64,000 nucleotides of DNA from Bacillota bacterium (GCA_040755615.1 JBFMAL010000009.1:3155-67154), one strand, 5' to 3'. Shown: positions 5,472-21,775, counted from the first letter of the stretch. The notes: generated from the sequence alone by a model not told the origin. Translations and numbers: made by a program.

Positions 5472-6347
5472 TTATCTCCCAAGCGCTTCTTTGATTAAGG
5501 CCGGCACCTCCCAGGGCAGCTGCGCGATGCGCGCCCCTCCGGCTTCCAGTGCTTTTACTTTGCTTTCAAAAGTGCCCCTGCCCCGTTCGATGATGGCGCC
5601 TGCGTGCCCCATGCGCTTTCCTGGTGGCGCGCTCTTGCCCGCAAGGTAAGCCACTACGGGCTTGTTCATGCCCTTGATCAGCTCGGCAGCTTCTTCCTCC
5701 TGTGTGCCGCCGATCTCGCCCACCAGCACGCACGCCTCCGTATCCGGGTCCTTTGCGAACTGCTTTAAAATACTGACAAAACTCTGGCCCACCACCCGGT
5801 CTCCGCCCAGTCCCACAACGGTGGACTGGCCAAGGCCTGCCCTGGTGAGCGACTGCGCCACCTCGTAGCTCAGGGTGCCCGAGCGGGCAGCAATACCGAC
5901 GCATCCCGCAGCATATATCTGGTTCGGCATGATCCCGATCTTGCACTTGCCTGGGCTTATGATACCGAACGTGTTGGGCCCGATTACGGTCGTACCCTTC
6001 TCTTTCGCAAACGCCATGATGTCCAGCGTGTCGTGTACAGGTATGTGCTCGGTGATAATCACCACCACAGCGACGCCCGCGTCTATCGCCTCAAACGCCG
6101 CGTCCTTCGCAAACCGGGCGGGCACGAACAGGACTGACGCGTTGGCGCCGTGCTTTTCCACTGCGTCCTCTACAGTATCATACACCGGCAGCCCGTGCAC
6201 TTCCTGCCCGCTTTTGCCCGGAGAGACACCGGCGACCACCCGGGACCCGTAAGCCAGCATCTGGGCGGCGTGGAACGCTCCCTGGTTGCCAGTGATGCCC
6301 TGAACCACCACCTTGGTCTTTTCGTTGATTATAATGGCCACTGTCAC
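5472..6347 (-). CDS. sucD: succinyl-CoA synthetase alpha subunit
   Basis: CoA-binding and phospho-histidine region (RMGHAGAII, GPNCPGII-like GPNTFGIISPG). 4-nt overlap with sucC. Confidence 0.9.
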   Translation of the reverse strand: MTVAIIINEKTKVVVQGITGNQGAFHAAQMLAYGSRVVAGVSPGKSGQEVHGLPVYDTVEDAVEKHGANASVLFVPARFAKDAAFEAIDAGVAVVVIITEHIPVHDTLDIMAFAKEKGTTVIGPNTFGIISPGKCKIGIMPNQIYAAGCVGIAARSGTLSYEVAQSLTRAGLGQSTVVGLGGDRVVGQSFVSILKQFAKDPDTEACVLVGEIGGTQEEEAAELIKGMNKPVVAYLAGKSAPPGKRMGHAGAIIERGRGTFESKVKALEAGGARIAQLPWEVPALIKEALGR

Positions 6348-7459
6348 TCTCCTCCTCCGCGGGCAAGTGCAACAACCCTGGACGCCGCCTCATCCATCGT
6401 CTTGTAAGCGGGGAAACCGTGCTCGGATAGCAGCCGCACCCCTTCTTCCTCGTTTGTACCCACGAGCCTTATCACTACCGGCACCGGTATGCCCCTTTGC
6501 TCCTTGACCATGATGAGGGCTCTAGCCACGTCATCGCAGCGGGTGATTCCACCGAAAATGTTGATCAGGATCGCCTTTGGATTCGTCTCAAGCAGTACTT
6601 CGATGGCCCGGGCCGTGGGCTCCACCGAAGCGCCTCCACCGGCATCGAGGAAGTTGGCGGGGCGCCCGCCGTAGTGCTGCAGGATGTCTAGCGTGGCCAT
6701 GGCCATGCCTGCCCCGTTGGCCATGACGGCAATATCACCATCCAGCTCCACGTAGGAAAGGCCCATTTTTCTGACGCGCAGCTCGATCTCGGTGCCCTCC
6801 TCGATGACCGGCACGCCCTCTTGCCGGAACAGCGCTTCGTCATCAATGTTCAGCCTGCCGTCTGCGGCCACCACCCGGTCGCCGGATATCACCAGCGGGT
6901 TGATCTCGGTGAGCTCTGCGTCGTACTGCTTGAACACACCGTACAGCTTGACCAGGATGTCGGCGACCTTCGACGCGTGCGGCCCCTGCAGTCCCATCCT
7001 CCTTACTATCTGCCTCGCCTTGTAGGCCCCAAGTCCCCAGCTGGGGTGCAGGTTCACCTTTACAATATCCTTAACCGGAACCTCCTCGATGTCCATACCC
7101 CCGCGGGCGGATGCGATACAAAGCGGTGCCCGGTTTCCCGCATCCACAGTGAGCCCGAGATATAGTTCGGCATCGATGCTCAGCCGCTCTTCAACAAGGA
7201 TTGTGTCTACACGTAAACCGCGGATTTCGGTACCAAGGAGTCTTTCCGCGGCCGCTTTGGCCTCCTCAGGTGTGGACGCAAACGCGATGCCCCCGGCCTT
7301 TCCGCGTCCCCCGGCAAGCACCTGGGCCTTGAGCGCCACCGCTCCCAGTGCCCGGGCAGCTGACTCCGCCTCCTCAGCAGTCCTCGCCACCATGCCCTTT
7401 GGCACCGGGATACCGGCTTTCGACATGATCTCCTTGGCCAGGTATTCGTAAAGCTTCAA
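6344..7459 (-). CDS. sucC: succinyl-CoA synthetase beta subunit
   Basis: ATP-grasp N-terminal domain (MKLYEYLAKEIMSKAGIPVP) and CoA-ligase C-terminal domain. Confidence 0.9.
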   Translation of the reverse strand: MKLYEYLAKEIMSKAGIPVPKGMVARTAEEAESAARALGAVALKAQVLAGGRGKAGGIAFASTPEEAKAAAERLLGTEIRGLRVDTILVEERLSIDAELYLGLTVDAGNRAPLCIASARGGMDIEEVPVKDIVKVNLHPSWGLGAYKARQIVRRMGLQGPHASKVADILVKLYGVFKQYDAELTEINPLVISGDRVVAADGRLNIDDEALFRQEGVPVIEEGTEIELRVRKMGLSYVELDGDIAVMANGAGMAMATLDILQHYGGRPANFLDAGGGASVEPTARAIEVLLETNPKAILINIFGGITRCDDVARALIMVKEQRGIPVPVVIRLVGTNEEEGVRLLSEHGFPAYKTMDEAASRVVALARGGGE

Positions 7460-7465
7460 TACACG

Positions 7466-9079
7466 TCACCTCGCAAGTGGCTTCCGCGTGTAATCGGGAA
7501 GGAGCATGGGCGACATCCTGTCAGTAACAATGCCCTCGGCTTCCAGCTCGGCATGGTACTTCTTCACGTGTTCAAGCGTGAGCCTGCCGGGCTTTACCGT
7601 CCGGGCGTGTTCTGCAGCGGCAGATCCCGCCCTCTTTCCGAAGACCAGGATATCAAGAAGGGAGTTACCCATGAGCCTGTTTCTGCCGTGAACTCCGCCA
7701 GAGGTCTCTCCCGCCACAAAAAGGCCCGGGATCCGCGTCTCTCCCCTGTCATTTATGTCCACCCCGCCGTTCTGGTAGTGAAGCGTTGGGTAGACCAGCA
7801 CCGGTTGCGCGCTCATATCTATACCGAACCTCTTAAACTGTCTGAACATGGCGGGGAGCTCGCGCTGCACGGTGCCGCTGCCGTGTATCAGGTCTATCAT
7901 GGGAGAATCAAGCCATACCCCCATCTGGCCCGTTGAGGTGGTCCACCCCTTCTTCCGCTCGGTGCATTCCCGGATGATAGCGGAGGATACGGCATCCCTC
8001 GTCTCAAGCGGATATATAAATTGCTCTCCTTCCATATTCACCAGCTGAGCGCCAAGTCCTCTTACCTTTTCTGTAACAAGCTGTCCCACGATCTGCTCTG
8101 GGAACGCAACGCCGGTGGGGTGGATCTGCGTGGCGTCAAGGTATATGAGGGGTGCTCCCGCGCGGTACGCCATGACGAGCCCGTCCGCAGTGGCGCCATA
8201 ATGGTTTGTGGTGGGAAAGCCCGCTACGTGGAGCCGACCGAACCCGCCAGTAGCCAGGATCACGCACCTGGCCCTCGCCACGTGGTACTCCCCTGTCTCA
8301 AGGTTCATAAGCACCGCGCCAGCGCACTTGCCCTCGTCGTCCAGCACCAGCTCGACGGCGGGCGAAAACTCGATGGTGACAATGCCCAGGTTCCGGGCCT
8401 CGTCCCTCAGTGTGCGCATGATCTCAGCGCCCGTGTAGTCCCGCGCGTAGTGCATCCTCTTTCTGCAGGTGCCGCCGCCGTGGATGGTCATCAGGGTGCC
8501 GTCAGAGTCCTTGCTGAACATACAGCCGAGCTCGCAGAGCCAGTCGATGACCAGCGGCGCGTCGTGTACCAGGGCGCGCACCAGGTCTGGCTTGTTCACA
8601 AAACCGCCCCCGCCCATCACGTCAAGATAATGGAGCATCGGCGAGTCGTTCGACTTGGTCGCAGCTTGGATGCCTCCCTGTGCCATCATGGTATTGGCGT
8701 CACCAAGCCTCAGCTTGGTCACCTGGAGCACCCGTGCTCCTGCTAGGCTCGCCACGATTGCAGCGGACGTGCCCGCGCCGCCTCCGCCCACGACCAGTAC
8801 GTCTACGTCGTAGCTCACCTGGTCAAGCGGCACTGCGTCCGGGTCAAGCCTGCTTCTTGCCTCAAGCAAGTCCGCGAGCTCGTGCGGCACCTTTTCGCCC
8901 TTGCTCGGGCCAATCCGTATCGCCCTCATGGTATCTGGCCGGAAATCCGGGTGAAAGCCTTTGAGGAGGGCGTCTTTTTCCCCGGGAGTAAGCCTCGGGT
9001 ATGTCTCAGTCATCCTTTTCGCCCGGGTCTTCTCTACGAGTTTGATCGATTCGAGCATACCGGCATTGTACATCGTCAT
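7466..9079 (-). CDS. fumarate reductase/succinate dehydrogenase flavoprotein-family subunit (TfrA-like) with ~100-aa N-terminal extension
   Basis: FAD-binding DVLVVGGGGAG, then GGIQAA and HYxMGG-like motifs of the SdhA/FrdA family. Sits between sucC and an SdhB-like Fe-S gene. Confidence 0.75.
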   Translation of the reverse strand: MTMYNAGMLESIKLVEKTRAKRMTETYPRLTPGEKDALLKGFHPDFRPDTMRAIRIGPSKGEKVPHELADLLEARSRLDPDAVPLDQVSYDVDVLVVGGGGAGTSAAIVASLAGARVLQVTKLRLGDANTMMAQGGIQAATKSNDSPMLHYLDVMGGGGFVNKPDLVRALVHDAPLVIDWLCELGCMFSKDSDGTLMTIHGGGTCRKRMHYARDYTGAEIMRTLRDEARNLGIVTIEFSPAVELVLDDEGKCAGAVLMNLETGEYHVARARCVILATGGFGRLHVAGFPTTNHYGATADGLVMAYRAGAPLIYLDATQIHPTGVAFPEQIVGQLVTEKVRGLGAQLVNMEGEQFIYPLETRDAVSSAIIRECTERKKGWTTSTGQMGVWLDSPMIDLIHGSGTVQRELPAMFRQFKRFGIDMSAQPVLVYPTLHYQNGGVDINDRGETRIPGLFVAGETSGGVHGRNRLMGNSLLDILVFGKRAGSAAAEHARTVKPGRLTLEHVKKYHAELEAEGIVTDRMSPMLLPDYTRKPLAR

Positions 9080-9085
9080 CCCTCC

Positions 9086-9766
9086 CTACGGCTCTATGTC
9101 TCGCGCATCGTACATCGCCTTGAGCTCTTCGGTACTGGTATCGCAAAGCGCATCCAGGTCCCGGTCGAACTCGCCCGCCTTGATCCTCGAGACGACGGAG
9201 GCCAGATGCTCCGCGGGAGGAGCGATGTACCTCGCATACAGCCTTCTTGCCAGGATCGCCACGTTGTACTGCACGGTCTCAGCGGGGCAGCGGGACGCGC
9301 ACAGTCCGCACATGATGCAGTCAAACGACAGGTCCGCAACCTTCTCGATATCACCCCGCATGGCGGCTGCCATGTAATCCATTACTTTGAGTTCCTGTGG
9401 GCATACCTTGGTGCAGGTGTTGCACCCCAGGCACCTTGAGAGCTCGGGGTAGCTCTTTAGAAGCTGCGCCAGGGTGGGCGCCGCCTCCCTGATGTCGTAC
9501 CGGGCCCGGTTTGCGGGGAAAAACGGCAGCTGCGCCAGGTACATGTCGTTTTCCACCACCGTCTGGCAGGCCAGACCCACCTTTATCCTGTAATCCCCGG
9601 GGGTGCGGTAGACCGTACCGCACGCGCCGCAAAAGCCTCCCCTGCAGCCACAGCCCCTGATAAACTTGTAGCCCGCATACTCCATGGCCTTCATGATGGT
9701 GAGCCCTGCGGGCACCTCGTAGGCCTTGCCCATCACGTGGATTTTCACCATCTCCGGTTCTGCCAA
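9086..9766 (-). CDS. succinate dehydrogenase/fumarate reductase iron-sulfur subunit-like protein
   Basis: 2Fe-2S motif CGCRGGFCGACG plus two ferredoxin-type motifs, CLGCNTCTKVCP and CIMCGLCASRCP. Confidence 0.7.
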   Translation of the reverse strand: MAEPEMVKIHVMGKAYEVPAGLTIMKAMEYAGYKFIRGCGCRGGFCGACGTVYRTPGDYRIKVGLACQTVVENDMYLAQLPFFPANRARYDIREAAPTLAQLLKSYPELSRCLGCNTCTKVCPQELKVMDYMAAAMRGDIEKVADLSFDCIMCGLCASRCPAETVQYNVAILARRLYARYIAPPAEHLASVVSRIKAGEFDRDLDALCDTSTEELKAMYDARDIEP

Positions 9767-9781
9767 TTCGCTTTCCCCCTT

Positions 9782-10888
9782 TTACCTGGGTTCCAATTCT
9801 TCTTCTCTGAACGTGGACAACGGCAGAGGATCGTCCAGGCTCCGCCCAGGCACATAGTTCCAGATGGCCTGAATCCGCTCGCTTGCAGCCGCAAACAGCG
9901 TGGCCAAAGGCAAGTCCGCCGGGCAGGCGCTCTCGCACATGCCGCAGTTCACGCAGGATGTGCCCATGTGGTTCAGCCTCGTCAGATGAAACAGCAGGGT
10001 ATCTGTGGGCATCTCGATAAGTCCCTTCCGGCTCGCCCACCTGACATAGCTTGAGGACTCGTGGTCGAAGATCCTCCCGTCGAACACGCACTCCTTGCAG
10101 TAGCAGATAGGGCATGCCCTGCGGCAGTTACCGCATTTTAGGCACATGGCCATCTCGGCCATAAGAGCGGGGAGGTCCGGCACCGCCTGCCTCCACTGGG
10201 AGAACCGGGTTTTCCTCGCATCCTCTCTGCGCGTGCGGAGTGCCGCCAGCGCCTTGGCTCTCTCGCCCGCCTCGCCCGCAGAAAGCCCGAGCGCTCCCGC
10301 TATTTCATCTGCCAGCTCGTGCTTTATCTCCACTACCAGCTGGTCGGGCGATGTGCCGACAACACCGATGTTCGCGGCGACGTTGCCTGATACCGCCTCC
10401 ACGCACACCTCGCACGCGGACCGAACGCCAGAAGCGGCGCCGGACCTCATCGAGGCGACCCAGTCCTCCGAAAGGTCTTTCAGCCCGGAGCCGGAAAGCC
10501 TGGCCCTGAAGACCTCGGGGTCCAGCGTGCCGAGGCAGTCCACTCCAATGAGTAAGAGCCTTGAAAGGTCGACCTGCTTCAGCTTGACCAATTCGTAGGC
10601 CGCCCGTACCTCACAAGGCCTGCACACGGCAGCGATCCGCGCTTTTGGGTCCTTGAACGTCAAGTGCCCGAGTACCTTGGCCTGGCTGACGAGCACAAGC
10701 GGTGCGAAGGGGTCTGGCGCGACCAGTTTTTCGGGGTCGCGGACGAGCGTAGAGACCACGCTTCTGCCGGAGGAGGTTTCCTGCGGCACCAGGACCAGGT
10801 CGACCACGCCGGCTGTGAGGAGCCCGCGAAAGAAACCCCTTACGGTCCCCCAAAAGTCCCCCTGAGTGTTCAAAACAAAGCTCTTCAT
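9782..10888 (-). CDS. FrhB/FdhB-family Fe-S flavoprotein (F420-hydrogenase beta-subunit-like)
   Basis: N-terminal FrhB-like domain, C-terminal CLKCGNCRRACPICYCKEC and CVNCGMCESACP motifs. AGCGAGGT RBS before ATG at 10888 (track ORF starts with GTG at 10924). Confidence 0.55.
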   Translation of the reverse strand: MKSFVLNTQGDFWGTVRGFFRGLLTAGVVDLVLVPQETSSGRSVVSTLVRDPEKLVAPDPFAPLVLVSQAKVLGHLTFKDPKARIAAVCRPCEVRAAYELVKLKQVDLSRLLLIGVDCLGTLDPEVFRARLSGSGLKDLSEDWVASMRSGAASGVRSACEVCVEAVSGNVAANIGVVGTSPDQLVVEIKHELADEIAGALGLSAGEAGERAKALAALRTRREDARKTRFSQWRQAVPDLPALMAEMAMCLKCGNCRRACPICYCKECVFDGRIFDHESSSYVRWASRKGLIEMPTDTLLFHLTRLNHMGTSCVNCGMCESACPADLPLATLFAAASERIQAIWNYVPGRSLDDPLPLSTFREEELEPR

Positions 10889-10911
10889 GGTGTCTACCTC
10901 GCTTTGAGCCA

Positions 10912-11358
10912 TCAGATTTCCCACTGTGCCTTCATGGGATTGGGGCCAAGTTGCTTGAGAGTTGCCACCATCTTTGTCACCGTATCCGCGAACAGCTTGC
11001 CTTCGCTGGCCGAGATAAACCGGAACCAGACCCGGTCCCCGGGAATGCCGAACTGCGAAAGCACGTTCTTGGCAATGGCCACACGGCGTCGTGCCTTGTA
11101 GTTACCGTTGACGTAATGGCAGTCTCCCGCGTGGCACCCGCCCACCAGCACCCCGTCGGCGCCTTCCAGTATGGGTTTTATGATGTACAGGGGATCGACC
11201 GACCCGCTGCACATCACCCTGATCACCCTGATGTTGGGCGGGTACTGGATCCGGGAGGTACCCGCAAGGTCCGCGCCTGTGTAGGTACACCAGTTGCACA
11301 GAAGGGCGATAATCTTCGGCTCAAAATCTGAAGCTGTCTTTTGTGCCGGAACGCTCAT
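10912..11358 (-). CDS. mvhD: MvhD-type hydrogenase iron-sulfur subunit (methyl-viologen-reducing hydrogenase delta-subunit family)
   Basis: KIIALLCNWCTYTGADLAG ... CSGSVDP ... GCHAGDCHY signature of MvhD/FlpD. 4-nt overlap with the downstream hdrL. Confidence 0.75.
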   Translation of the reverse strand: MSVPAQKTASDFEPKIIALLCNWCTYTGADLAGTSRIQYPPNIRVIRVMCSGSVDPLYIIKPILEGADGVLVGGCHAGDCHYVNGNYKARRRVAIAKNVLSQFGIPGDRVWFRFISASEGKLFADTVTKMVATLKQLGPNPMKAQWEI

Positions 11359-14300
11359 TCCCGAATCACCTCCGTTATCCCGTCTGAAAGCGCTTCGTCC
11401 AGCATGGCCATGATCTGCGACTTGTCAAACCCCCGCTGGACCGACGCGCCATTTGGACAGGCGGCCACGCACGCGCCGCAGCCCTGGCACAGCACTTCTC
11501 TCACCGCCGCCACGTTTCTTTCCTCGTCGATGCACCTCGCCTCGTACGGACAGGCGGAGACACACACGCCGCACGCGGAGCAGATGCGCTCCCTGACCGC
11601 GGCGATGGTCGCTTCCGATTCGATCCTATCCTTGGACAGCAGCGTCACCGCCCTGATGGCTGCGGCCTTGGCCTGCGCTACCGACTCGGGGGCGAGCTTC
11701 GGCGAGTGGGCGAGCCCGGCCAAGTAGATGCCGTCTGCCGCGAAGTCCACAGGACGCAGCTTCATGTGGGCCTCCGAAAAGAAACCGTCCTGGTTCAGGG
11801 GCAGCTTAAACACCCGGGCCAGGTGCTCGTTGGCCCCGGCAGCTACGCCCGTAGACAGCACCAGGTATTCCACCGAAAGCCTGACCTCCCGCCCGATGGC
11901 CGGGTCCTGAGCGGTCAGGACCACCCCGTCATCGCGCGGTGACACTCGCGGTTTTTCGTCCGGGTCATACCTTATAAACAGCACCCCCGCCTCTCTTGCC
12001 TGCCTGTAGTACTTCTCCCTGAAGCCGTAGGTGCGCATGTCCCTATAGAACACGTACACCTTAGCATCAGGCCTCTTTGACTTTATATAAAGTGCGTTCT
12101 TCACCGCGTTGGTGCAGCAGATCCTGCTGCAGTACGGGTGGTCGTCATCGCGCGAGCCCACGCACTGGATCATGGCGACGGACTGTGGCACAAATCCTTT
12201 CGCCAGCATCTCCTCCAGCTCGCGTTGGGTAATCACGCGGTCGCTTTCGCCATAGCCGTACTCTTTGGGCGTCATCTCCGTCGCCCCGGTGGCGATAACC
12301 ACCGCTCCGTGCCTCACCTCGAGCGTTTCGTGCACCGAGCGCAGAGTGGTCTTGTAGTTGCCCTTGTAGCCCACGGAGTCTGCCACCTCGGTGCTGGTAT
12401 ATACCCGGATGTCTGGGCACGACATCACCGCACCGATCAGCTCCTCAAGGTACGCCCCGGGATTCTCGCCCGACAGGGCGATCTTCACGTGCCTGTAGTT
12501 GCCGCCGAGCTCGGCCTCCTTCTCCACCAGATGTACCGAAAAGCCCTGCCTGGCGAGGGAGAGCGCGGCCGTCATGCCTGTTATCCCTCCTCCCACCACA
12601 AGCGCCGTATGCTCGATCTCGGAGAACACGGTGTAAAGGGGTTCAAGCAACCTGGCCTTCGCCACAGCCATGGACACGAGCGTCTTTGCCTTGGCCGTCG
12701 CTTCGACCGGGTAATCCCTGTGTACCCAAGAGGAATGCTCTCTGATGCTGGCGAGCTCAAAGAGGAACATATTGAGTCCCGCCTCGCGCAGTGTATCCCG
12801 GAACAGCGCTTCATGGGTCCGCGGCGTGCAGGATGCAACCACTACGCGGTTTAAGCCGTACTCTTTGATGCGCTCTTTGATCTTCTCGATGCTGTCCTGA
12901 GCGCACGCGTACAAAAACTCGTCTGCGTGTACCACGCCAGGTATGGCGCAGGCGTGCGCCACCACCTCGGGTACGTTCACCACCGAACCGATGTTGCGCC
13001 CGCAGTGGCACACGAATACGCCCACCCGCGGTTCCTGGCCACGGACCTCGCGCTCCGACGGATAGCGTTTCACCCGGGTCAGCGTGTGCCTCACCCCGCT
13101 CAAAAGTTCGGATGCGCACGCCGCCGCTGCGGAGGCCTCGGTCACCGTCTCGGGTATGTCCTTCGGACCGGAGAACGCCCCGGATACGAACACGCCGGGC
13201 CGGCTTGACGCGACAGGCAGCAGCGGATCGGTCACGGGGAAGCCGTGCTCGTCCAGCAGTATCCCCGCGCTGGATGCTACCTGCTGGGCATCCGCGGCCG
13301 GCAAAAAGCCCACAGACAGCACCACCAGGTCGAACTCCTCCGTGCGGAACCCGCTTTCAGTGTGGTACCTGAGCCTCAGGTTGCCGCTTGGGTTCACTTC
13401 CTTCACCGAACTCACCATGGCACGCACGTAGCGCACCCCGTACTCCTCTTTCGCTCGCTCGTAGTACCGCTCGAAGTCCTTGCCGAAGGCGCGTACGTCC
13501 ATGTAAAAGATGGTGGTCTCGACCCCGGGCAGGTGTTCCTTGGCGATGACAGCTTCTTTCGTGGCGTGCATGCAGCATACCGCCGAGCAGTAATCGCTGG
13601 CGTGCGCACAATCGCGCGAACCCACGCACTGGATAAACGCGATCCGCTTCGGTTCTTTGTGATCGGACGGCCTCACCACGTGGCCCTGGTACGGACCCGA
13701 GGCGGACAGCATCCTCTCAAACTGGATGCTCGAGATCACGTTGGGAACCTGCCCAAACCCGTACTCGCCCTTCTTCGCCGCATCAAACAACGAAAACCCC
13801 GGCGAGAGGATCACTGACCCGACTGTGAGTTCGACTACCTCGTCGGTCATCCGGTGGTCGATGGCACCAGGACCGCACACTTTTTCGCACTCCAGGCATT
13901 CGCAGCACGCGCCGCAGGCAAGGCACCTTGACGCCTCCTCCCTGGCCGTCGCATCATCCAGCGCGAATTCCACTTCTTTGAAATCCTGCCGCCTGTCCCC
14001 AGCCGGCCGGCACATGACTTTCGCTCTCTTTTTCTTTGTGGCAGACAGCGCTTCATACGGGGCGATTTCTTCCTCCGGCACGCGCAGCGTCCTTCCCTCG
14101 CGCAGGTCCTCGCCATCCAAAAAACGCACGATGGACTCGGCGGCCCTCTTTCCCGCAGCCACCGCTTGGATCAGAAGGCCCGGCCCCGACACCGCGTCGC
14201 CCCCCGCGAATACGCCGGGAATGGACGTCTCGAGTGTCAACGGATCCGCAGCGATGGTGCCGCCTGAGAGCCTCAGCTCGTCGAGCCCTTTCGTGTCTGT

Positions 14301-15797
14301 AGCCTGCCCCACCGCCAGTATGACGGTATCCACATCCAGGTAGAACTCGGAGCCCTTCACCGGCACCGGACGCCTGCGGCCGGATGCATCCGGCTCGCCC
14401 AGTTCGTTTCTGAGGCATTCCATCCGGGCAAGCCTGCCGGATGCCCCGAGCTTCCCCGTGCCCAGAAACGCCTGTGGCGAAGTAAGCATCAAGAACCGCA
14501 CGCCCTCCTCCTTCGCCTGCTCGATCTCTTCCGGGAGCGCGGTGATCTCCTGCTCGGTGCGCCTGTAAACCACGGTCACCTCGGAGGCGCCAAGCCGCAC
14601 CGCTGTCCGGGCGGCATCCATTGCAGTGTTGCCGCCACCCACCACCGCCACCCGGGCACCGAGGGTCACCGTCTGCCCCAGTGAGACCTTTCTCAAAAAC
14701 TCCACACCGTCGATAACCCCGGGCAGATCCTCGCCCGGCACGCCCAGCCGCCGGCCGCGGTGGGCACCCACAGCCACATATACCGCCGAGAAGCCCTTTT
14801 CAAATAGGGATTTTATACTGAAGTCCTTCCCGAGCGCCTGACCCGTGCGTATATCCACCCCCAGGGAGCGGATCACGTCGATCTCTTTTTGCACAACATC
14901 CCGGGGCAGGCGGTAGGACGGGATGCCCACCACCATCATGCCGCCGGGCACGGGGAGTTTTTCAAACACCGTCACCGATATCCCTTTTCTTGCCAGGTGG
15001 TACGCGCACGACAGCCCGGCCGGTCCCGCGCCCACCACCGCCACTTTCTCGGGCCTGGGCGTTGGGGCAACAAGCTGTGGGCCGCCCTCCAACCACACCG
15101 TGTCTGCTATGGTACGCTTTAGCGCCATAATGGAAACGGGCGCATCCAAGCGGCCTCTGTGACACGCGGCCTCGCACGGGTGCTGGCACACCCGACCGCA
15201 TACCGATGGGAAGGGTAGGTCGCGGTAGATCACGTCCAGCGCCTCGCGGTACTTGCCCTGTGCCAGCAGCGCCACGTATGCCTGTGCATTGACTCCCGCC
15301 GGGCATGCCGCCCTGCACGGAGGTATGCCGCGTTTTTCCACCGCGTACGCGTTGGGAGTTGCCTGCGGGTACATCTTGTATATGGCTTTCCTCGTGCCGA
15401 GTGCGCCGTCAAACTCGCTCGACCTGTCTATGGGGCAGGCCCTGGCGCAGTCACCGCACGAGGTACACTTCTTCAAATCCACATACCGGGCTTTCTTGGA
15501 AAGCCGCACGCTGAACGCCCCGGGCTCGCCTTCTACAGAGAGCAGCGTGGCGCCGGGGATGATCTCAACATTCAAGTGCCTTCCAGTATCCACCAGCTTG
15601 GGCGACATGATGCACATGGCGCAATCGTTGGTGGGGAACGTCTTATCCAGGCGGGCCATGGTGCCGCCGATGGCGGGCGCGCTGTCGGCCAGGTACACCC
15701 TGAGCCCCGCCTCAGCCAAGTCCAGCGCCGATTGCATGCCGCTGATCCCGCCGCCCAGCACGAGCACGGCCCCGCTCTTCCGCGCGCTGTCCATCAT
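11355..15797 (-). CDS. hdrL: giant HdrA-like multi-domain flavoprotein (HdrL-type). Domain order: HdrA FAD domain + ferredoxin, NfnB/GltD-like NAD(P)H domain, then a complete HdrA
   Basis: Three Rossmann GxGxxG sites (VLGGGISGMQSA, VAVVGAGPAGLSCA, VVGGGITGMTAA). GltD/NfnB N-terminal Fe-S region (CRAACPAGV...CGRVCQHPCEAAC). HdrA N-terminal Cys motif (VFVCHCGRNIG) in the middle. Multiple CxxCxxCxxxCP ferredoxin motifs. 1480 aa. Confidence 0.8.
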   Translation of the reverse strand: MMDSARKSGAVLVLGGGISGMQSALDLAEAGLRVYLADSAPAIGGTMARLDKTFPTNDCAMCIMSPKLVDTGRHLNVEIIPGATLLSVEGEPGAFSVRLSKKARYVDLKKCTSCGDCARACPIDRSSEFDGALGTRKAIYKMYPQATPNAYAVEKRGIPPCRAACPAGVNAQAYVALLAQGKYREALDVIYRDLPFPSVCGRVCQHPCEAACHRGRLDAPVSIMALKRTIADTVWLEGGPQLVAPTPRPEKVAVVGAGPAGLSCAYHLARKGISVTVFEKLPVPGGMMVVGIPSYRLPRDVVQKEIDVIRSLGVDIRTGQALGKDFSIKSLFEKGFSAVYVAVGAHRGRRLGVPGEDLPGVIDGVEFLRKVSLGQTVTLGARVAVVGGGNTAMDAARTAVRLGASEVTVVYRRTEQEITALPEEIEQAKEEGVRFLMLTSPQAFLGTGKLGASGRLARMECLRNELGEPDASGRRRPVPVKGSEFYLDVDTVILAVGQATDTKGLDELRLSGGTIAADPLTLETSIPGVFAGGDAVSGPGLLIQAVAAGKRAAESIVRFLDGEDLREGRTLRVPEEEIAPYEALSATKKKRAKVMCRPAGDRRQDFKEVEFALDDATAREEASRCLACGACCECLECEKVCGPGAIDHRMTDEVVELTVGSVILSPGFSLFDAAKKGEYGFGQVPNVISSIQFERMLSASGPYQGHVVRPSDHKEPKRIAFIQCVGSRDCAHASDYCSAVCCMHATKEAVIAKEHLPGVETTIFYMDVRAFGKDFERYYERAKEEYGVRYVRAMVSSVKEVNPSGNLRLRYHTESGFRTEEFDLVVLSVGFLPAADAQQVASSAGILLDEHGFPVTDPLLPVASSRPGVFVSGAFSGPKDIPETVTEASAAAACASELLSGVRHTLTRVKRYPSEREVRGQEPRVGVFVCHCGRNIGSVVNVPEVVAHACAIPGVVHADEFLYACAQDSIEKIKERIKEYGLNRVVVASCTPRTHEALFRDTLREAGLNMFLFELASIREHSSWVHRDYPVEATAKAKTLVSMAVAKARLLEPLYTVFSEIEHTALVVGGGITGMTAALSLARQGFSVHLVEKEAELGGNYRHVKIALSGENPGAYLEELIGAVMSCPDIRVYTSTEVADSVGYKGNYKTTLRSVHETLEVRHGAVVIATGATEMTPKEYGYGESDRVITQRELEEMLAKGFVPQSVAMIQCVGSRDDDHPYCSRICCTNAVKNALYIKSKRPDAKVYVFYRDMRTYGFREKYYRQAREAGVLFIRYDPDEKPRVSPRDDGVVLTAQDPAIGREVRLSVEYLVLSTGVAAGANEHLARVFKLPLNQDGFFSEAHMKLRPVDFAADGIYLAGLAHSPKLAPESVAQAKAAAIRAVTLLSKDRIESEATIAAVRERICSACGVCVSACPYEARCIDEERNVAAVREVLCQGCGACVAACPNGASVQRGFDKSQIMAMLDEALSDGITEVIRE

Positions 15798-16651
15798 GCT
15801 TCCACCCCCGCCTTCAGCTTCTCAAATACCATCTTCGTGGAGACCAAATGGCGGGCGAGCCACCGCCGAGTCCCATGAAGACCCAGCGCCACTCCCATGA
15901 GTTCGGTGAAATAGAACACGGGAATCCGCTGGCTGGACGACCGCCTCATCTCCAGATTCGCCTGGCAGAGGGGGCATGCTGTGACGATAGCGTCCGCACC
16001 GGCGTCGATGGCGGCCGCTACAATTGGCTTCACCATGGCCACCACCAGCCGGCTGCTGGTCAGCGAGAGGTTGGCCCCGCAGCACTCCGTCCTGTAGGAC
16101 CACCTGACGCACGATGCGCCGAGCGCCTCCATAATGTCTTCCATCATCCGCGGGTTTTCCGGATCGGCGACCCCAGTCACCTCGGCAGGCCGCAGCAGCA
16201 GGCACCCGTAATAGCAGGCGAGCTTCAGCTTGAGCGGTTGCTTCACCTTCCGCTCGATGGCGGCTGCCGTGATGCGCCTGTGCATGAACTCAAGCAAGTT
16301 TTCCACTTCCGGTACGCGCGAAAAGCGATAATCCAAGGCATGTTCACTCATCTGCCTTATGCTGTCTCGGCGCCTGATGTGGTGCGCAGCCTTCTTCAGT
16401 CTACTGTAGCACGCCGCGCAGGGCGCCACCACCAGGTCCGCCCCTTCAGCGTCCGCCTGCGCCAGGTTCCTCGCGGCCAGCGCGATCCCCAGCTGGCCGT
16501 TGGTGCTGTGCGCTGATGTGGCGCCGCAGCAGTTCCAGTCTGACACCTCGGGTATATCCAGTTCAAACGCGGAAAACACCGCCTTTGTACTTTCATCATA
16601 TTCCTTCGCCGTGGAATGCAGCGAGCAGCCGGGATAATACTTGACGTTCAA
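15794..16651 (-). CDS. hdrB: heterodisulfide reductase subunit B-like (two CCG domains)
   Basis: CCG domain motifs (YYPGC...WNCCGA, CYYGC...ECCGA, ACPLCQANL). Confidence 0.85.
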   Translation of the reverse strand: MNVKYYPGCSLHSTAKEYDESTKAVFSAFELDIPEVSDWNCCGATSAHSTNGQLGIALAARNLAQADAEGADLVVAPCAACYSRLKKAAHHIRRRDSIRQMSEHALDYRFSRVPEVENLLEFMHRRITAAAIERKVKQPLKLKLACYYGCLLLRPAEVTGVADPENPRMMEDIMEALGASCVRWSYRTECCGANLSLTSSRLVVAMVKPIVAAAIDAGADAIVTACPLCQANLEMRRSSSQRIPVFYFTELMGVALGLHGTRRWLARHLVSTKMVFEKLKAGVEA

Positions 16652-17220
16652 CTTGTGCCCCCCCTCCTTCTGCTGGTACGCGAAAAGATCTGCCTCACCT
16701 GTTCTCTGCCCCGGAGCCGCGGGGGTAAGATGGCGAGTTTGCCCTTTAGAAACATCTTTGCGCCCACCAGGAGATCGTTTAGAAGCTGCCCCGACATCAG
16801 CTTGTACTTCCCGAGCAGGAGTACCTCATGCATACGGCCCTGGCTTTTAACGGTATCAAGGAAGATCCTGTGGAACAGCACGATCCGCTTGCCGCGCGCG
16901 ATGCCCCTCGACAGCGCCATCTCGCGGCACACGTCCATAACTTCCGCCATGTTGATACCGTTCGGACACCTTGCGCCACAGGTCTCGCAGCTCGAACACA
17001 GCCAGATGCTCTCTGAGCGGAGCACCAAGTCGCTTGCGCCGTACTGGATGTACCTCACGATCTGGTTGGGGTGAAGGTCCATGAACTCAGCCGCGGGGCA
17101 CCCCGAACTGCACTTTTCGCATTGGTAACACAGATCGAGGGGCTGACCGGACGCCTGTTTCACTCGCTCAAGAAAGTCTGCATCGAGCGTCAGCGTCCCT
17201 GACTTGTCCAACAGCTGCAC
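16648..17220 (-). CDS. hdrC: heterodisulfide reductase subunit C-like (2x[4Fe-4S])
   Basis: CYQCEKCSSGCP and CSSCETCGARCP motifs. 4-nt overlap with hdrB. Confidence 0.8.
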   Translation of the reverse strand: MQLLDKSGTLTLDADFLERVKQASGQPLDLCYQCEKCSSGCPAAEFMDLHPNQIVRYIQYGASDLVLRSESIWLCSSCETCGARCPNGINMAEVMDVCREMALSRGIARGKRIVLFHRIFLDTVKSQGRMHEVLLLGKYKLMSGQLLNDLLVGAKMFLKGKLAILPPRLRGREQVRQIFSRTSRRRGGTS

Positions 17221-17235
17221 TGGGATCCCCCCTTT

Positions 17236-19185
17236 CTAGAGCATGGCATCGATCATAGACAGGAGTTGCGGCTTGGTGAGATTCCTGTGTTTTGTCGCCC
17301 CGCTCGGGCACGCAGCTGCACAGCCGCCGCAGCCCTGGCAGAGCACCTCGAATACCGTTGCGACGCGCGTGTGTTCATCTACTGCCCTTGCGCCGTATGG
17401 GCACGCCTCCACACATATCCCACACCCCACGCAGATGTCCGGGTCCACCTCTACTACTGTGGGCGGATGCTGCAGTTCTTCGCCTGAAAACAGCGTGAGC
17501 ACCTTTGAGGCCGCGGAGCCTGCCTGCGCTACGCTATCGGGTATGTCCTTGGGCGCCTGGGCGCACCCTGTGAGGTAGATGCCTCGCGTCAGGCTCTCCA
17601 CAGGCCGGAGCTTGGGGTGCGCCTCCTGGAAGAACCCGTAGGCGTCCGTACCCAGACGCAGCACCTGCGCCAGTTCCCTGGCATCATGGCGCGGAACGAT
17701 GGCAGTAGCCAACACCACCAAGTCCGCGGCGATGCGCACGTTCTCGCAAGAGAGCGTGTCTGTACCCCACACCATGACCTTGTCCCCTTCCTGGAACACG
17801 CGGGATACGCGGCCGCGGAGGTAGAGCAGGCCGTCTTGCTCCACGCCCCTCTGGATGAACTCCTCGTAGCCCTTGCCGGCGGCGCGGATGTCCATGTAAA
17901 AAAGGTAGGCCTGCCCGTCGTGCACTTTGTGCTTGTACAGCATGGCGTGCTTTGCCGAGTACATGCAGCAGATCTTGGAGCAATATGGCATACCTTTCTC
18001 CTGGTCTCTCGACCCCACGCACTGTATGAACACAACCTCCTTCGGGACACGGCCGTCTGACGGACGCCGGATCTCGCCCTGCGTGGGACCTGAAGAGGAG
18101 TTCAGGCGCTCGAATTGAAGCCCATCTATCACATCGGGAATACGGCCGTAGCCATACTCTCCAAAATGCTCCTTCGGCAAAAGGTCGTAGCCCGTGGCCA
18201 CCACGATGGCCCCGACCTGTTCCTCGATGACCCGTTCTTCGTCTTCAAAGTTGATGGCATCCACGGGGCAGACCTTCTTGCACACCCCGCACTTGCCCGA
18301 ATTGAGGTAGATGCAGTGTTCCCTGCTTATGGCGGGTCGATAAGGCACCGCCTGGGGGAACGCCACCCCGATGGCCTTGGTCTTTCCCATGCCCCTGTCA
18401 AACTCGGAGTCCACCTTTTTCGGGCACTTGTTCATGCACTCCATGCAGCCCGTGCACCTGTCCCAGTGCACGTAGGTGGGGTGCACCTTGATCTTCACAT
18501 TGAAATTGCCTACGTAGCCCGACACTTTCACGACCTCGGAATGGGTCATAAGCTGTATGCGCTCGTGCCGCCCTACCTCAGCTGTTTTCGGAGTGAGGAT
18601 GCAGCTGGCGCAATCCAGCGTAGGGAAGGTCTCCGAAAGCTGCGCCATGCGGCCGCCGATGTGGGGCAGCCTTTCGACCAAAACCACCTGGTAGCCCGCG
18701 TCGGCGACCTCCAGCGCCGTCTGCATCCCGCTGATGCCTGCTCCTATCACCAGCGCCTTCTTGGTTACGGACACCGCTATCGGCTTCAGCGATTCATCCC
18801 TCCTGGTCTTCTCTACCACCGACCTCACCAATTCAATCGCCTTTTCGGTGGCTTCCTGCTTATACTGGGAATGGACCCAGCTGTCCTGTTCACGGATATT
18901 GCATATCTCAAGTCTGTACGGGTTGAGCCCCGCCGCCTGTGCCGCCAGCCTGAACGTGGTCTCGTGCATGTTAGGCGAACACGCCGCTACAACCACCCCG
19001 TCAAGCTGCTTTTCGGCTATGGCTTGTTTGATGAGCGCCTGGCCCGGGTCTGAACACATATATTTATAGTCTTCAGCGTGGACGACTCCTGGGTATTGCG
19101 AGATCTCCTCTACCACGGCTTTCACATCCACCGTGCCCGCGATGTTGTACCCGCACCAGCAGACAAAGACTCCGATCCTTCGCAT
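17236..19185 (-). CDS. hdrA: heterodisulfide reductase subunit A (canonical ~650-aa HdrA)
   Basis: N-terminal Cys domain (VFVCWCGYNIAG), FAD site VIGAGISGMQTA, inserted and C-terminal ferredoxin motifs (CTGCMECMNKCP, CGVCKKVCP, CVGCGICVEACP, CQGCGGCAAACP). Confidence 0.85.
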   Translation of the reverse strand: MRRIGVFVCWCGYNIAGTVDVKAVVEEISQYPGVVHAEDYKYMCSDPGQALIKQAIAEKQLDGVVVAACSPNMHETTFRLAAQAAGLNPYRLEICNIREQDSWVHSQYKQEATEKAIELVRSVVEKTRRDESLKPIAVSVTKKALVIGAGISGMQTALEVADAGYQVVLVERLPHIGGRMAQLSETFPTLDCASCILTPKTAEVGRHERIQLMTHSEVVKVSGYVGNFNVKIKVHPTYVHWDRCTGCMECMNKCPKKVDSEFDRGMGKTKAIGVAFPQAVPYRPAISREHCIYLNSGKCGVCKKVCPVDAINFEDEERVIEEQVGAIVVATGYDLLPKEHFGEYGYGRIPDVIDGLQFERLNSSSGPTQGEIRRPSDGRVPKEVVFIQCVGSRDQEKGMPYCSKICCMYSAKHAMLYKHKVHDGQAYLFYMDIRAAGKGYEEFIQRGVEQDGLLYLRGRVSRVFQEGDKVMVWGTDTLSCENVRIAADLVVLATAIVPRHDARELAQVLRLGTDAYGFFQEAHPKLRPVESLTRGIYLTGCAQAPKDIPDSVAQAGSAASKVLTLFSGEELQHPPTVVEVDPDICVGCGICVEACPYGARAVDEHTRVATVFEVLCQGCGGCAAACPSGATKHRNLTKPQLLSMIDAML

Positions 19186-19188
19186 GAG

Positions 19189-20067
19189 CTACACCCCGTT
19201 TGCGAACCCGGCCAGCACAGGCCGGGGATCTACATGATGAAGCGAAAAGTCCTGCAGCACCTCAGTACATCCCAGCGCCAGCGCCAAAAGTTGGGTGAAA
19301 TAAAGGACTGGCATCTGCCCTTTCACGTCGAGGTTGTACTGGCACAACGGACATGACGTCACTATGCAGTGAGCCCCATACCTGCCCGCGGAGCGAAGGA
19401 TGGCGCGCGCAGGCTCGCCTGACCTTTCATCTTCCGAGATGGACACGTACGCGCCGCAGCACTCAGTGCGGTACGGGTAATCCACCGGGGTAGCTCCCAG
19501 CGCTCTTATGAAGTCCTCGAAAATGGAGGGAGACTCTGCGTCGTCAAACTGCATATCCTCCGGCGGTCGAAGCAGAAGGCAGCCGTAGTACGGGGCTACG
19601 GAAAGCCCCGTGAGGGGCCGGGTGACCCTTTCTTTCAGCGCCTCGAACCCGAGGTCTGTTTTGAGCACCTCGAGCAGGTGCAGCACGCGGGCGTCCCCCC
19701 TGTAATCTGTCTCCACAAACGCAGATAATTTCCCCTGCACATCAGGGTCTTTCGCAACGCGCACGTTTGTCCTCTTCAGCACGTTGTAACAGCCGGAACA
19801 CATGGTCACAAGGTCCTCTCCCCTTGAGTGGGCGGAAGACAGCGTCCTGTACGGGGATACCAGCGCCATGTGGTTGTCGGAAGCCAGCGGGTACACAGCC
19901 CCGCAACACTGCCAATCCGGCAGTTCAACCAGCTCGATACCGAGTTCCCGGGCAGACGCAAGTGCTGAGGCCCCAAAGTTCTTCGCCTGCGTGTGCAGGG
20001 TACATCCAGGAAAGTAACTGTACCTCATTTGTCTTCCCGTGCCTTTCTTTAGCCGGGTGCCGGGCAC
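19189..20067 (-). CDS. hdrB: heterodisulfide reductase subunit B-like, second copy
   Basis: YFPGC...WQCCGA and YYGC...ECCGA CCG motifs. Confidence 0.85.
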   Translation of the reverse strand: MPGTRLKKGTGRQMRYSYFPGCTLHTQAKNFGASALASARELGIELVELPDWQCCGAVYPLASDNHMALVSPYRTLSSAHSRGEDLVTMCSGCYNVLKRTNVRVAKDPDVQGKLSAFVETDYRGDARVLHLLEVLKTDLGFEALKERVTRPLTGLSVAPYYGCLLLRPPEDMQFDDAESPSIFEDFIRALGATPVDYPYRTECCGAYVSISEDERSGEPARAILRSAGRYGAHCIVTSCPLCQYNLDVKGQMPVLYFTQLLALALGCTEVLQDFSLHHVDPRPVLAGFANGV

Positions 20068-20466
20068 CTAGCTGTATTTGCGAAGACCTCCGACCAGCGC
20101 TTGCTGTGGCATCGCCTCCAGCAGCTCGGGTGGCAGCCGGGTCGGATTCACGAAGTCCTTTCCTTCCCTTAAAAGCACCGTCCGGAGTGCCTCCATGATC
20201 CTGGAGAGGTCAACGGACCTCGGGCATCGCGACGCGCACGTATGGCAGGCCGCGCAGAGCCAGATGGTCCTTGAGGATAGCGCCACGGACTCCTGACCCA
20301 GCTGCAAGAGCCTCAGCACCCTGTGCGGCAGGTACTCCATCACTTCAGCCATGGGGCAGCCCGCAGAACACTTCCCGCACTGGTAACAGCCATGTATCTT
20401 TTCGCCGCTTATTTCCTCTACCCTGAAGACAAACTCGCTCCTTACCTTGTCAGCCGTCAGCTGCAA
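20068..20466 (-). CDS. hdrC: heterodisulfide reductase subunit C-like, second copy (TTG start)
   Basis: CYQCGKCSAGCP and CAACHTCASRCP motifs. Starts with TTG after GGGGGAG. Confidence 0.7.
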   Translation of the reverse strand: MQLTADKVRSEFVFRVEEISGEKIHGCYQCGKCSAGCPMAEVMEYLPHRVLRLLQLGQESVALSSRTIWLCAACHTCASRCPRSVDLSRIMEALRTVLLREGKDFVNPTRLPPELLEAMPQQALVGGLRKYS

Positions 20467-20523
20467 AGTCTCATCTCCCCCTTGAGTGCCCGGGAGGGGC
20501 GCTCCCTCACGGGCGACCGGTTA

Positions 20524-21765: not shown

Positions 21766-21775
21766 AATCTACCTC

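Follow-up and report, generated by a model that had tools for sequence, protein, structure and literature searches.

We describe two giant open reading frames (ORFs) of the HdrL type in a stretch of DNA of 64,000 nucleotides (nt), referred to here as the window, from a Bacillota bacterium metagenome-assembled genome (MAG; GCA_040755615.1, contig JBFMAL010000009.1, positions 3155-67154). ORF A (11355-15797, minus strand, ATG start) encodes 1480 amino acids (aa) and ORF B (28627-33051, minus strand, GTG start) encodes 1474 aa. Both are intact and lie where a preliminary description, made from the sequence alone, had placed them, and its identification of them as HdrL-type fusions of HdrA and NfnB/GltD parts is supported. 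They very probably belong to the HdrL, or Moorella-type long HdrA, family, judging by their domain organization. Each chain is predicted from its motifs to be a covalent HdrA pseudo-heterodimer whose N- and C-modules are complementary and half-degenerate. The best explanation of the whole, which we regard as probable, is that these proteins, as "long HdrA", form the flavin and iron-sulfur core of a soluble enzyme with several subunits, an oxidoreductase belonging to the HdrA family and operating by flavin-based electron bifurcation or confurcation. The two ORFs are colinear from end to end and 53% identical (779/1475, with 24 gap positions), in keeping with their earlier description as diverged paralogues.

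The anatomy of ORF A emerges from alignment to the HdrA of Methanothermococcus thermolithotrophicus (PDB entry 5ODC). Once residues 159-619 are removed, the first 920 residues give a single alignment to HdrA 146-562 (E 9e-125) that covers the TrxR-like flavin adenine dinucleotide (FAD) domain and the inserted ferredoxin domain, but neither the N-terminal nor the C-terminal ferredoxin domain. The N-module is thus continuous, and the NfnB-like unit sits within the inserted ferredoxin domain, where it separates the two cluster motifs. The C-module (residues 901-1480) aligns to HdrA 5-242 and 322-655, with three residues in place of the inserted ferredoxin domain of about 80 residues and without the FPTxDCxxC motif that contains Cys197. 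The preliminary description had envisaged a truncated HdrA, an NfnB-like unit and a complete HdrA in succession. Instead, the NfnB-like unit lies inside the first HdrA module, and the idea of a complete C-terminal HdrA is refuted by the two-part alignment of the C-module, from which the inserted ferredoxin domain and the Cys197 motif are absent. Neither module unites the four domains and Cys197 in one unit of about 650 aa, as canonical HdrA does. The parts of the two ORFs are as follows.

15324-15797, minus strand: ORF A N-module part 1 (residues 1-158), with the FAD fold GGGISG at 15, FPTNDCAMC with C59/C62 as the equivalent of HdrA Cys197, and the first inserted-ferredoxin-domain motif, CxxCxxCxxxCP, at 111-122; the HdrA N-terminal domain is absent
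13908-15323, minus strand: ORF A nested GltD/NfnB-like unit of StnC type (residues 159-630), with C161/C165, C200/C204/C208/C212, K227, an FAD fold at 256, R296, an NAD(P)H fold at 387, YRR at 411-413 and a permuted segment, RRQDFKEV...RCLAC, at 598-628
13083-13907, minus strand: ORF A N-module part 2 (residues 631-905), with the second inserted-ferredoxin-domain motif, CxxCxxCxxxCGP, at 631-642 and the remainder of the TrxR-like FAD domain, including E694, the cluster C724/C737/C741/C742 and K747; the C-terminal ferredoxin domain is absent
11358-13082, minus strand: ORF A C-module (residues 906-1480), with the HdrA N-terminal domain (C930, C932, C965, C990), an FAD fold at 1069, E1195, C1212/C1223/C1227/C1228, K1233 and the C-terminal 2x[4Fe-4S] ferredoxin domain at 1406-1447
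~32575-33051, minus strand: ORF B N-module part 1
~31165-32574, minus strand: ORF B GltD insert
~30334-31164, minus strand: ORF B N-module part 2
~28630-30333, minus strand: ORF B C-module

Pfam and NCBIfam searches place an HdrA-type signal in four separate stretches of each ORF. The NCBIfam HdrA model stays under its cut-off, and so does the HdrA2 model NF040770, with 945 and 1014 bits against a cut-off of 1100; PRK12771 marks the GltD/NfnB-like unit at about residues 150-657 with 558 and 580 bits, over its cut-off of 516; Fer4_20, the DPD/GltD-type Fe-S domain, matches residues 159-235. The cysteine motifs quoted in the preliminary description occur in both ORFs, the GltD/NfnB-type motif as CGRVCQHPCEAAC in ORF A (residues 200-212) and CGRVCHHPCEASC in ORF B (residues 201-213), and the HdrA N-terminal motif as VFVCHCGRNIG (ORF A, 927-937) and VFVCHCGINIG (ORF B, 928-938). 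Its three Rossmann dinucleotide sites have to be raised to four GxGxxG/A motifs in ORF A, at 15, 256 and 1069 for FAD and at 387 for NAD(P)H. Its minimum of five ferredoxin motifs is too high for the classical CxxCxxCxxxC form, of which there are four (111, 631, 1406 and 1437), with GltD-type, TrxR-type (CSxxCC) and N-domain cysteine sets in addition. The predicted cofactors per chain are three FAD, one NAD(P)H site and about nine [4Fe-4S] clusters.

Conservation was scored in an alignment of 30 diverse homologues, in which 37 cysteines are invariant, each within a cofactor motif. The E356/K409 pair of HdrA is matched by E694 and K747 in the N-module, both invariant, and by E1195 and K1233 in the C-module, conserved in at least 90%. 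The N-module has the Cys197 equivalent and no N-terminal domain, the C-module shows the converse, and the inserted and C-terminal ferredoxin domains each occur once in the whole chain. The cluster in the N-terminal domain of a methanogen HdrA protomer is ligated by Cys197 of its partner protomer, and Chadwick et al. found the same complementarity in tandem and fused HdrAs of anaerobic methanotrophic archaea (ANME), for which they proposed self-heterodimers (PMC9012536). A motif census of the fetched loci extends this pattern: all two-module forms, among them about 20 GltD-less fusions of about 1,000 aa, show Cys197 only in the module without an N-domain, and single-module forms of HdrA with GltD combine Cys197 and the N-domain in one module. 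The split versions in the census, in which a gene for the N-module with GltD adjoins a separate C-type HdrA gene (L019, L057, L060 and L061), also conform, and the complementarity rule holds throughout the modular series. A single complete HdrA with a nested GltD unit, of about 1,125-1,165 aa, was observed in five loci (L049, L050, L051, L053 and L069).

The nested unit resembles StnC, the GltD-domain subunit of Sporomusa ovata StnABC, more closely than it does NfnB. Its best PDB matches are the GltD-like domains of 9BOV_A (E 6e-133), 9N5U_A (3e-123) and StnC 8OH5_C (5e-108), followed by the NfnB entries 4YLF_B (2e-93) and 5JCA_L (4e-92), and the alignment spans 8OH5_C 101-576, including RCLxCG. 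In both HdrL and StnC, the segment that opens canonical NfnB (RRxNFxEV...RCLxC) comes behind the flavoprotein body. This relocated segment (598-628) leads gap-free into C631-x2-C634-x2-C637-x3-C641-G-P, which agrees perfectly with the second of the cluster motifs in the HdrA inserted ferredoxin domain. The unit has therefore been fitted seamlessly into that domain, between its halves. K227 aligns with StnC K170 and with the Glu cluster ligand of NfnB and is Lys in 28 of the 30 homologues and His in the other two. R296, the equivalent of NfnB R187/R201 near the flavin N5, is present in all 30; YRR in the NAD(P)H Rossmann fold is found in 26/30, and C200, which completes the NfnB-like cysteine set, is likewise mostly present (26/30). 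The retention of these NAD(P)- and flavin-binding residues disposes of the concern, raised with the preliminary description, that the middle domain might lack them. Glu at the FAD-proximal [4Fe-4S] cluster marks NfnB and Lys marks StnC, whose GltD domain is experimentally non-bifurcating (PMC10482914). HdrL has Lys in this position, together with the permuted CxxC and the embedding in a larger Fe-S protein that are typical of StnC; R296 and YRR do not discriminate, since both are also found in StnC.

Some relatives carry an enlarged nested unit. In five proteins of about 1,650 aa (P0045, P0070, P0029, P0088 and P0096), two of them annotated as Thermoplasmatota/Thermoplasmata archaea, an insert of about 150-165 aa follows the position of ORF A residue 486 and duplicates the NAD(P) Rossmann subdomain within the GltD unit. 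Four sequences of the alignment, presumably such variants, have CLE in place of YRR in the aligned copy.

By analogy with methanogen HdrA, a wiring of the arms (C-module FAD, NAD(P)(H), MvhD and HdrBC) can be proposed, which we consider plausible but still tentative. The N- and C-modules may fold back on each other like the methanogen HdrA homodimer, with C62 completing the N-terminal-domain cluster of the C-module. The C-module FAD would then be the only complete bifurcating center, having all three connections. In canonical HdrA, electrons are described as splitting between the TrxR-domain cluster and HdrBC on the high-potential branch and, on the low-potential branch, the N-domain cluster, the inserted ferredoxin domain and ferredoxin (PMC9012536). 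In HdrL, the ferredoxin-delivering arm would be hard-wired through the GltD FAD to NAD(P)(H), and the N-module FAD would retain only its TrxR cluster connection. The C-terminal ferredoxin domain would contact MvhD and, through it, a partner enzyme, and the TrxR-type clusters would contact subunits of the HdrC/HdrB type. The StnC-like Lys and permutation suggest that the GltD flavin is a plain converter between hydride and single electrons, and it is most likely a simple two-electron/one-electron converter, as in StnC, and not a second bifurcating site.

An improbable alternative is that the nested NfnB-like flavin itself bifurcates as in NfnAB, which would give HdrL two or three bifurcation sites and would make the ORF B system an Nfn-like transhydrogenase fused to Hdr, with a sulfhydrogenase-gamma-like protein as its PyrK/NfnA-like partner. 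This alternative draws on the invariance of the N5-contacting R296, on the NfnB-like cysteine set including C200 in 26/30, and on the suggestion of Chadwick et al. that ANME-1 HdrA-NfnB fusions have two bifurcation sites. An FAD/NAD/2Fe-2S protein is moreover encoded three genes downstream of ORF B, and the sulfhydrogenase beta/gamma-like pair to which it belongs recurs with HdrL in hdrL-mvhD-fdhB-like loci. The replacement of the proximal Glu of NfnB by Lys in 28/30, as in the non-bifurcating StnC, and the preference of the PDB matches for the permuted StnC-type forms over NfnB argue against it. The candidate NfnA-like partner near ORF B (25396-26238) was rejected, being much closer to sulfhydrogenase gamma (E 3e-70) than to NfnA (E 7e-15), and the ORF A operon lacks such a protein, no NfnA (PyrK-like FAD/[2Fe-2S]) partner having been found near ORF A.

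It is also quite unlikely that HdrL is a non-bifurcating NAD(P)H:acceptor oxidoreductase in which the HdrA-like flavins and clusters serve solely to conduct electrons from NAD(P)H to MetFV, Frd or a disulfide, as in QmoA/B or sHdrA. Non-bifurcating HdrA homologues do exist, and sHdrA (6TJR) is among the PDB matches; the sole ferredoxin-delivery domain is occupied by the GltD unit, and coupled bifurcating activity has never been shown for the complexes of Moorella or Sporomusa. Both TrxR-like domains nevertheless retain the E/K pair that serves to tell bifurcating HdrA flavins from non-bifurcating ones, and three separate docking modules (HdrBC, MvhD and NAD(P)H) are conserved. The Moorella complex also fails to catalyze the downhill reaction from NADH to methylene-tetrahydrofolate (methylene-THF), which is how tightly coupled bifurcating enzymes behave.

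The integrity of the long ORFs is well documented. Identical proteins are deposited at NCBI as MEW6243410.1 and MFZ5435808.1 for ORF A and as MEW6243426.1 and MFZ5435824.1 for ORF B, all under the title "MAG: NAD(P)-binding protein [Bacillota bacterium]", and Logan assemblies also contain both proteins in identical form. On other contigs, Joint Genome Institute (JGI) metagenomes hold a variant of A that is 94% identical (84 substitutions) and one of B that is 96% identical (55 substitutions), both gap-free and of equal length; the ligand cysteines are kept in these variants, and non-ligand cysteines, such as C950 and C1422, vary. The guanine-plus-cytosine content of the ORFs is uniform with that of their flanks, and the ends of ORF A overlap the upstream hdrB and downstream mvhD by 4 nt each. 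A fusion of separate hdrA and gltD genes by assembly or sequencing error, which the preliminary description had named as the case that would undo it, is therefore practically negligible: split versions of the modules do exist (L019, L057, L060, L061 and a pair of 407 and 514 aa in the window), but two NCBI MAG records and the Logan assemblies agree, the JGI variants are gap-free, full-length homologues are numerous (most of the best 120 of 7,980 database matches) and occur in complete genomes, and at the junctions P913, P914 and E915 hardly vary among the 30 homologues and the 625-641 motif not at all.

The family is large. At E <= 1e-50, a search of protein databases matched 7,980 proteins; of these, the best 120 are mostly full-length (1,460-1,530 aa) with 52-74% identity over 98-100% of the query, and about one fifth are the archaeal variants of about 1,650 aa, with 75-80% of the query covered. 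A homologue from Ca. Hakubella thermalkaliphila is 74% identical, and full-length homologues occur in complete genomes of Desulforamulus and Desulfotomaculum. A scan of species-representative genomes gave at least 600 matches, in bacteria (Desulfobacterota, Bacillota, Chloroflexota, Thermotogae and Actinomycetes) and in archaea (Bathyarchaeia, Thermoplasmata, Methanomassiliicoccales and Asgard archaea), a spread across many phyla at odds with the earlier statement that such proteins have been noted only sporadically. Two copies lie on one contig each in Desulfofalx alkaliphila and Desulforamulus aeronauticus, so the joint occurrence of two paralogues, which had been thought notable, is not unusual.

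A rough neighbor-joining tree places ORF A among forms from Hakubella and Bacillota and ORF B, loosely, with those from Desulfobacterota, which suggests that A and B are old paralogues or that one was acquired horizontally. The idea that subfamilies track gene context was discarded, as MetVF-linked HdrLs are polyphyletic in this tree and give no clean functional split. In most loci with a full-length HdrL, mvhD follows hdrL. Two patterns recur beyond this: hdrL-mvhD-fdhB-like-(hdrC-hdrB)-sulfhydrogenase beta/gamma-like, for example in Smithella, and hdrL-mvhD-metV-metF, in seven loci from Desulfobacterota, Anaerolineae and Bacillota. One Bacillota MAG locus (L002) has acsDE...hdrL-mvhD-metVF-fumAB-frdA, nearly the layout of the window. 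In another Bacillota MAG (GCA_040756655.1, locus L081), the HdrL is 60% identical to A, and the whole ORF A operon is syntenic, from DUF3870 through the FrdA-like gene (1958-18309, corresponding to 5472-23706 in the window, which continues into sucCD). A Thermoplasmata locus (L062) has frdB-frdA adjoining an HdrL-like gene and hdrCB.

In the window, both ORFs belong to a block of about 42 kb (5472-47620, minus strand) of 36 co-directional genes with a largest intergenic gap of 160 nt. This block joins the complete carbonyl branch of the Wood-Ljungdahl pathway, MetFV, four HdrA-type systems and C4-dicarboxylate enzymes. From 47620 downward the order is DUF3786, cooS, acsB, acsC, RACo, cooC, acsD and acsE; then a split HdrA pair, mvhD, hdrC-like, ORF B, mvhD, fdhB-like, sulfhydrogenase beta-like, gamma-like, metV and metF; then DUF3870, the alpha and beta genes of fumarase, and malic enzyme; and finally hdrC, hdrB, hdrA, hdrC, hdrB, ORF A, mvhD, fdhB-like, frdB-like, tfrA-like, sucC and sucD. 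ORF B thus lies between acsE and metVF, and its cluster (hdrC-like, hdrL, mvhD, three extra genes and metV-metF) is co-directional with gaps of at most 21 nt. The ORF A cluster has hdrCB and lacks metVF. The genes that bear on the two systems are listed below.

36761-37555, minus strand: acsE, with the split HdrA pair directly downstream
35510-36733, minus strand: N-type HdrA, 407 aa, without a GltD insert, 34% identical to the ORF A N-module
33969-35513, minus strand: C-type HdrA, 514 aa, without a GltD insert
33556-34086, minus strand: third MvhD
33055-33537, minus strand: HdrC-like, upstream of ORF B
28184-28699, minus strand: MvhD, downstream of ORF B
27259-28197, minus strand: FdhB-like, matching 8RVU_E, FdhB of methanogen Fdh-Hdr supercomplexes (E 1e-26)
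26235-27326, minus strand: sulfhydrogenase-beta-like ("AsrA-like"), matching Pyrococcus furiosus sulfhydrogenase I beta (E 8e-43)
25396-26238, minus strand: sulfhydrogenase-gamma-like NAD(P)H/FAD/2Fe-2S protein ("AsrB-like"), matching P. furiosus sulfhydrogenase I gamma (E 3e-70)
24706-25374, minus strand: metV, methylene-tetrahydrofolate reductase
23786-24709, minus strand: metF, methylene-tetrahydrofolate reductase
15794-20466, minus strand: hdrC-hdrB-hdrA-hdrC-hdrB, directly upstream of ORF A
17236-19185, minus strand: the hdrA of this group, canonical and four-domain, 649 aa
10912-11358, minus strand: MvhD (FlpD family), directly downstream of ORF A (PF02662, 3e-51)
9782-10924, minus strand: 380-aa Fe-S flavoprotein, FdhB/FrhB-like, downstream of the mvhD that follows ORF A
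9086-9766, minus strand: FrdB-like (2Fe-2S + 4Fe-4S)
7466-9079, minus strand: TfrA/FrdA-like flavoprotein, 341 bits with the TfrA thiol:fumarate reductase model, below its cut-off of 718
5472-7459, minus strand: sucCD, after the tfrA-like gene

The listed start of the MvhD gene downstream of ORF B overlaps that ORF by 73 nt, and its real start is therefore probably internal. A greedy ORF caller reported a plus-strand ORF at 32987-33697; it lies across hdrC and mvhD of the minus strand, and we take it to be spurious. The L002 equivalent of the split HdrA pair is one fusion of 1008 aa. No hydrogenase alpha or delta genes are found near the sulfhydrogenase-like pair (25396-27326), with which the ORF B operon gains a second module that binds NAD(P)H; Smithella and further loci from Desulfobacterota likewise have this pair alongside HdrL. 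The two FdhB/FrhB-like proteins (9782-10924 and 27259-28197) are 25% identical and each follows the mvhD of an HdrL; neither an FdhA nor an F420-related gene occurs near either of them, and no NCBIfam model names either protein. DUF3870 (23377-23706, minus strand) lies between metF and fumarase and has the same place relative to fumarase in L081, and DUF3786 (47012-47620, minus strand) lies upstream of cooS; both are uncharacterised families. A further set of minus-strand genes (61243-62772, 51645-52049, 54798-55775 and 62709-63815) includes an MttB-family (trimethylamine methyltransferase-like) gene and a small FmdE-domain protein adjoining a P-II-like protein and a Na+/H+ exchanger; two ORFs in this set, 325 and 368 aa long, have no Pfam match.

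These contexts point to a different partner for each HdrL. ORF B is probably the counterpart of the HdrA of Moorella thermoacetica, a component of the type IV (Hdr-type) methylene-THF reductase. NAD(P)(H) would occupy one arm, MetFV would be reached via MvhD on the stem, which is consistent with the conserved adjacency of mvhD and metV, and a partner of the HdrC/B type would occupy the third arm. Such a wiring agrees with the ferredoxin independence of the Moorella enzyme and with the proposed confurcation of NADH and a high-potential co-reductant, a quinol or thiol, onto methylene-THF. ORF A, in turn, is probably part of an HdrABC/HdrL-type complex like that of Syntrophobacter fumaroxidans (Sfum_0819-0824), putatively linked to a Tfr/Frd-like fumarate reductase. 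Its neighbors (HdrABC, HdrBC, FdhB-like and Tfr/Frd-like proteins) suggest, speculatively, a coupling to fumarate/succinate, and the potential of fumarate, +33 mV, argues for placing it on the high-potential arm. A related idea comes from tubeworm symbionts, in which tfrAB is interspersed with flxABCD-hdrABC (PMC6315080).

One could go further and suppose that the ORF A operon, which is conserved in the second Bacillota MAG (L081) and echoed in the Thermoplasmata locus (L062), encodes a soluble, quinone-independent, NAD(P)(H)-linked fumarate reductase or succinate dehydrogenase (Frd/Sdh) coupled to bifurcation or confurcation via HdrL/HdrABC, although we consider this rather unlikely. To our knowledge, a quinone-independent, bifurcation-coupled, NAD(P)(H)-linked enzyme of this kind has not been demonstrated. 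It would allow anaerobes to conserve energy from NAD(P)H-dependent fumarate reduction or, alternatively, to drive the difficult oxidation of succinate without reverse electron transport.

Several points weigh against the interpretation of HdrL as the core of a bifurcating or confurcating complex with this wiring. The difference between Lys and Glu at the proximal cluster no more than suggests a non-bifurcating GltD flavin, and the N5-proximal Arg is conserved in bifurcating and non-bifurcating types alike. The pseudo-dimer fold and the wiring of the arms follow from homology with methanogen HdrA, and sequence does not separate NADH from NADPH specificity. The best-studied member, that of Moorella, has no established reaction: its complex was never seen to carry electrons from NADH over to methylene-THF (PMC8760232, PMC13040438), ferredoxin proved not to be the missing partner, and co-reduction by a quinol has been proposed (PMC8760232, PMC13040438). 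The match to Moth_1194 and Sfum_0824 is based on published descriptions. Finally, the ORF B cluster has no adjacent hdrB, and its FdhB-like and sulfhydrogenase beta/gamma-like modules are absent from Moorella.

HdrL-type proteins take part in the least understood step of the Wood-Ljungdahl pathway, and which electron donors and acceptors the Hdr-type methylene-THF reductase uses has been an unresolved question since 2014. The anatomy described above holds family-wide and gives a testable wiring, with one complete bifurcating center, the "ferredoxin" arm leading to NAD(P)(H), MvhD leading to MetFV, and an HdrBC-type third arm. The family itself is already known, widespread and partly characterised; ORFs A and B are two further members from an uncultured Bacillota lineage and add little beyond that, except for showing that a single organism places two apparently old paralogues in separate metabolic settings. 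What merits following is the unresolved reaction of the family, together with the Frd-linked operon of ORF A.

Among known systems, the closest is Moorella HdrA (Moth_1194), a subunit of MetFV-HdrCBA-MvhD with 162.8 kDa and 1487 aa (PMC9430772). Its GltD domain interrupts the N-terminal TrxR-like and ferredoxin domains, its C-terminal HdrA (aa 922-1487) is without an inserted ferredoxin domain, and it has three FAD, one NAD(P)H site and E/K pairs at 696/750 and 1204/1246 (PMC9430772). As far as the published description allows comparison, this architecture is near residue-for-residue that of ORFs A and B, the E/K pairs of ORF A being at 694/747 and 1195/1233; the Moorella authors predicted eight clusters, against about nine here. 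Moorella HdrA is part of an enriched MetFV-HdrABC-MvhD complex (PMC9430772, PMC8760232) and has an NADH:benzyl viologen activity of 190 U/mg (PMC9430772). The earlier characterization of such proteins as biochemically uncharacterised is therefore overstated. The Moorella gene lies in an acs...hdr-mvhD-metV-metF neighborhood, as does ORF B. In Moorella, however, hdrC-hdrB-hdrA-mvhD-metV-metF is contiguous, whereas ORF B lacks the adjacent hdrB, its mvhD is separated from metV by FdhB-like and sulfhydrogenase beta/gamma-like genes, and the split HdrA pair lies upstream of it.

HdrL owes its name to the genome paper on Desulfobacterium autotrophicum HRM2, where a "heterodisulfide reductase/glutamate synthase fusion" always has mvhD following it (PMC2702500). 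HdrL1-3 of that organism and Sfum_0824 of S. fumaroxidans are, as here, large HdrA/glutamate-synthase-like fusions followed by mvhD, and the S. fumaroxidans cluster (Sfum_0819-0824: hdrABC, an FdhB-like Fe-S protein, mvhD and hdrL; PMC5947623) has the same gene set as surrounds ORF A. Its HdrABC/HdrL proteins were seen by proteomics and were abundant only with sulfate (PMC5947623). The host in the present case is a Bacillota MAG, and the link to DsrC and sulfate reduction proposed for those two organisms finds no evidence in the 64-kb window. Selenocysteine, carried by HdrL1 and HdrL3 of D. autotrophicum, is absent from A and B. Unlike the HdrL clusters named, the ORF A operon runs on into frdBA-sucCD, with fumarase and malic enzyme ahead of it.

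The two structural features of HdrL are found separately in ANME. HdrA9-11 (Chadwick et al. 2022) carry an NfnB-like insertion of about 500 aa in the inserted ferredoxin domain, and the fused self-heterodimers HdrA3/4 show complementary N-terminal domain and Cys197; HdrL combines insertion and fusion in one protein. The module order differs, the Cys197-bearing module being first in HdrL and the N-domain-bearing module first in HdrA3/4. HdrL shares with StnC (8OH5) and NfnB (4YLF, 5JCA) the pair of FAD and NADPH Rossmann folds, two [4Fe-4S] clusters and the N5 Arg, and with StnC specifically the CxxC after the flavoprotein body, the proximal-cluster Lys and the embedding in a larger Fe-S protein. 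The unit is housed in HdrA in HdrL and in a NuoG/FdhF-like scaffold in StnC, the equivalent of StnC Cys114 is Ala or Val in HdrL, and C200 is kept in HdrL and NfnB and absent from StnC; unlike NfnB, HdrL has no NfnA partner. Methanogen HdrA (HdrABC-MvhAGD, 5ODC; also the Fdh-Hdr complexes 7BKB and 8RVU) has the same TrxR-like FAD domain, E/K pair and CSxxCC cluster, and its N-terminal, inserted and C-terminal ferredoxin domains each appear once in HdrL, where two fused modules share them out, in contrast to their duplication in the HdrA homodimer. Hydrogenase and FdhA, known from the methanogen systems, are missing from the ORF A and ORF B loci, and the ferredoxin exit of HdrL, unlike that of methanogen HdrA, carries an NAD(P)H module, while MvhD and an FdhB-like partner are encoded beside HdrL just as in the methanogen HdrA systems.

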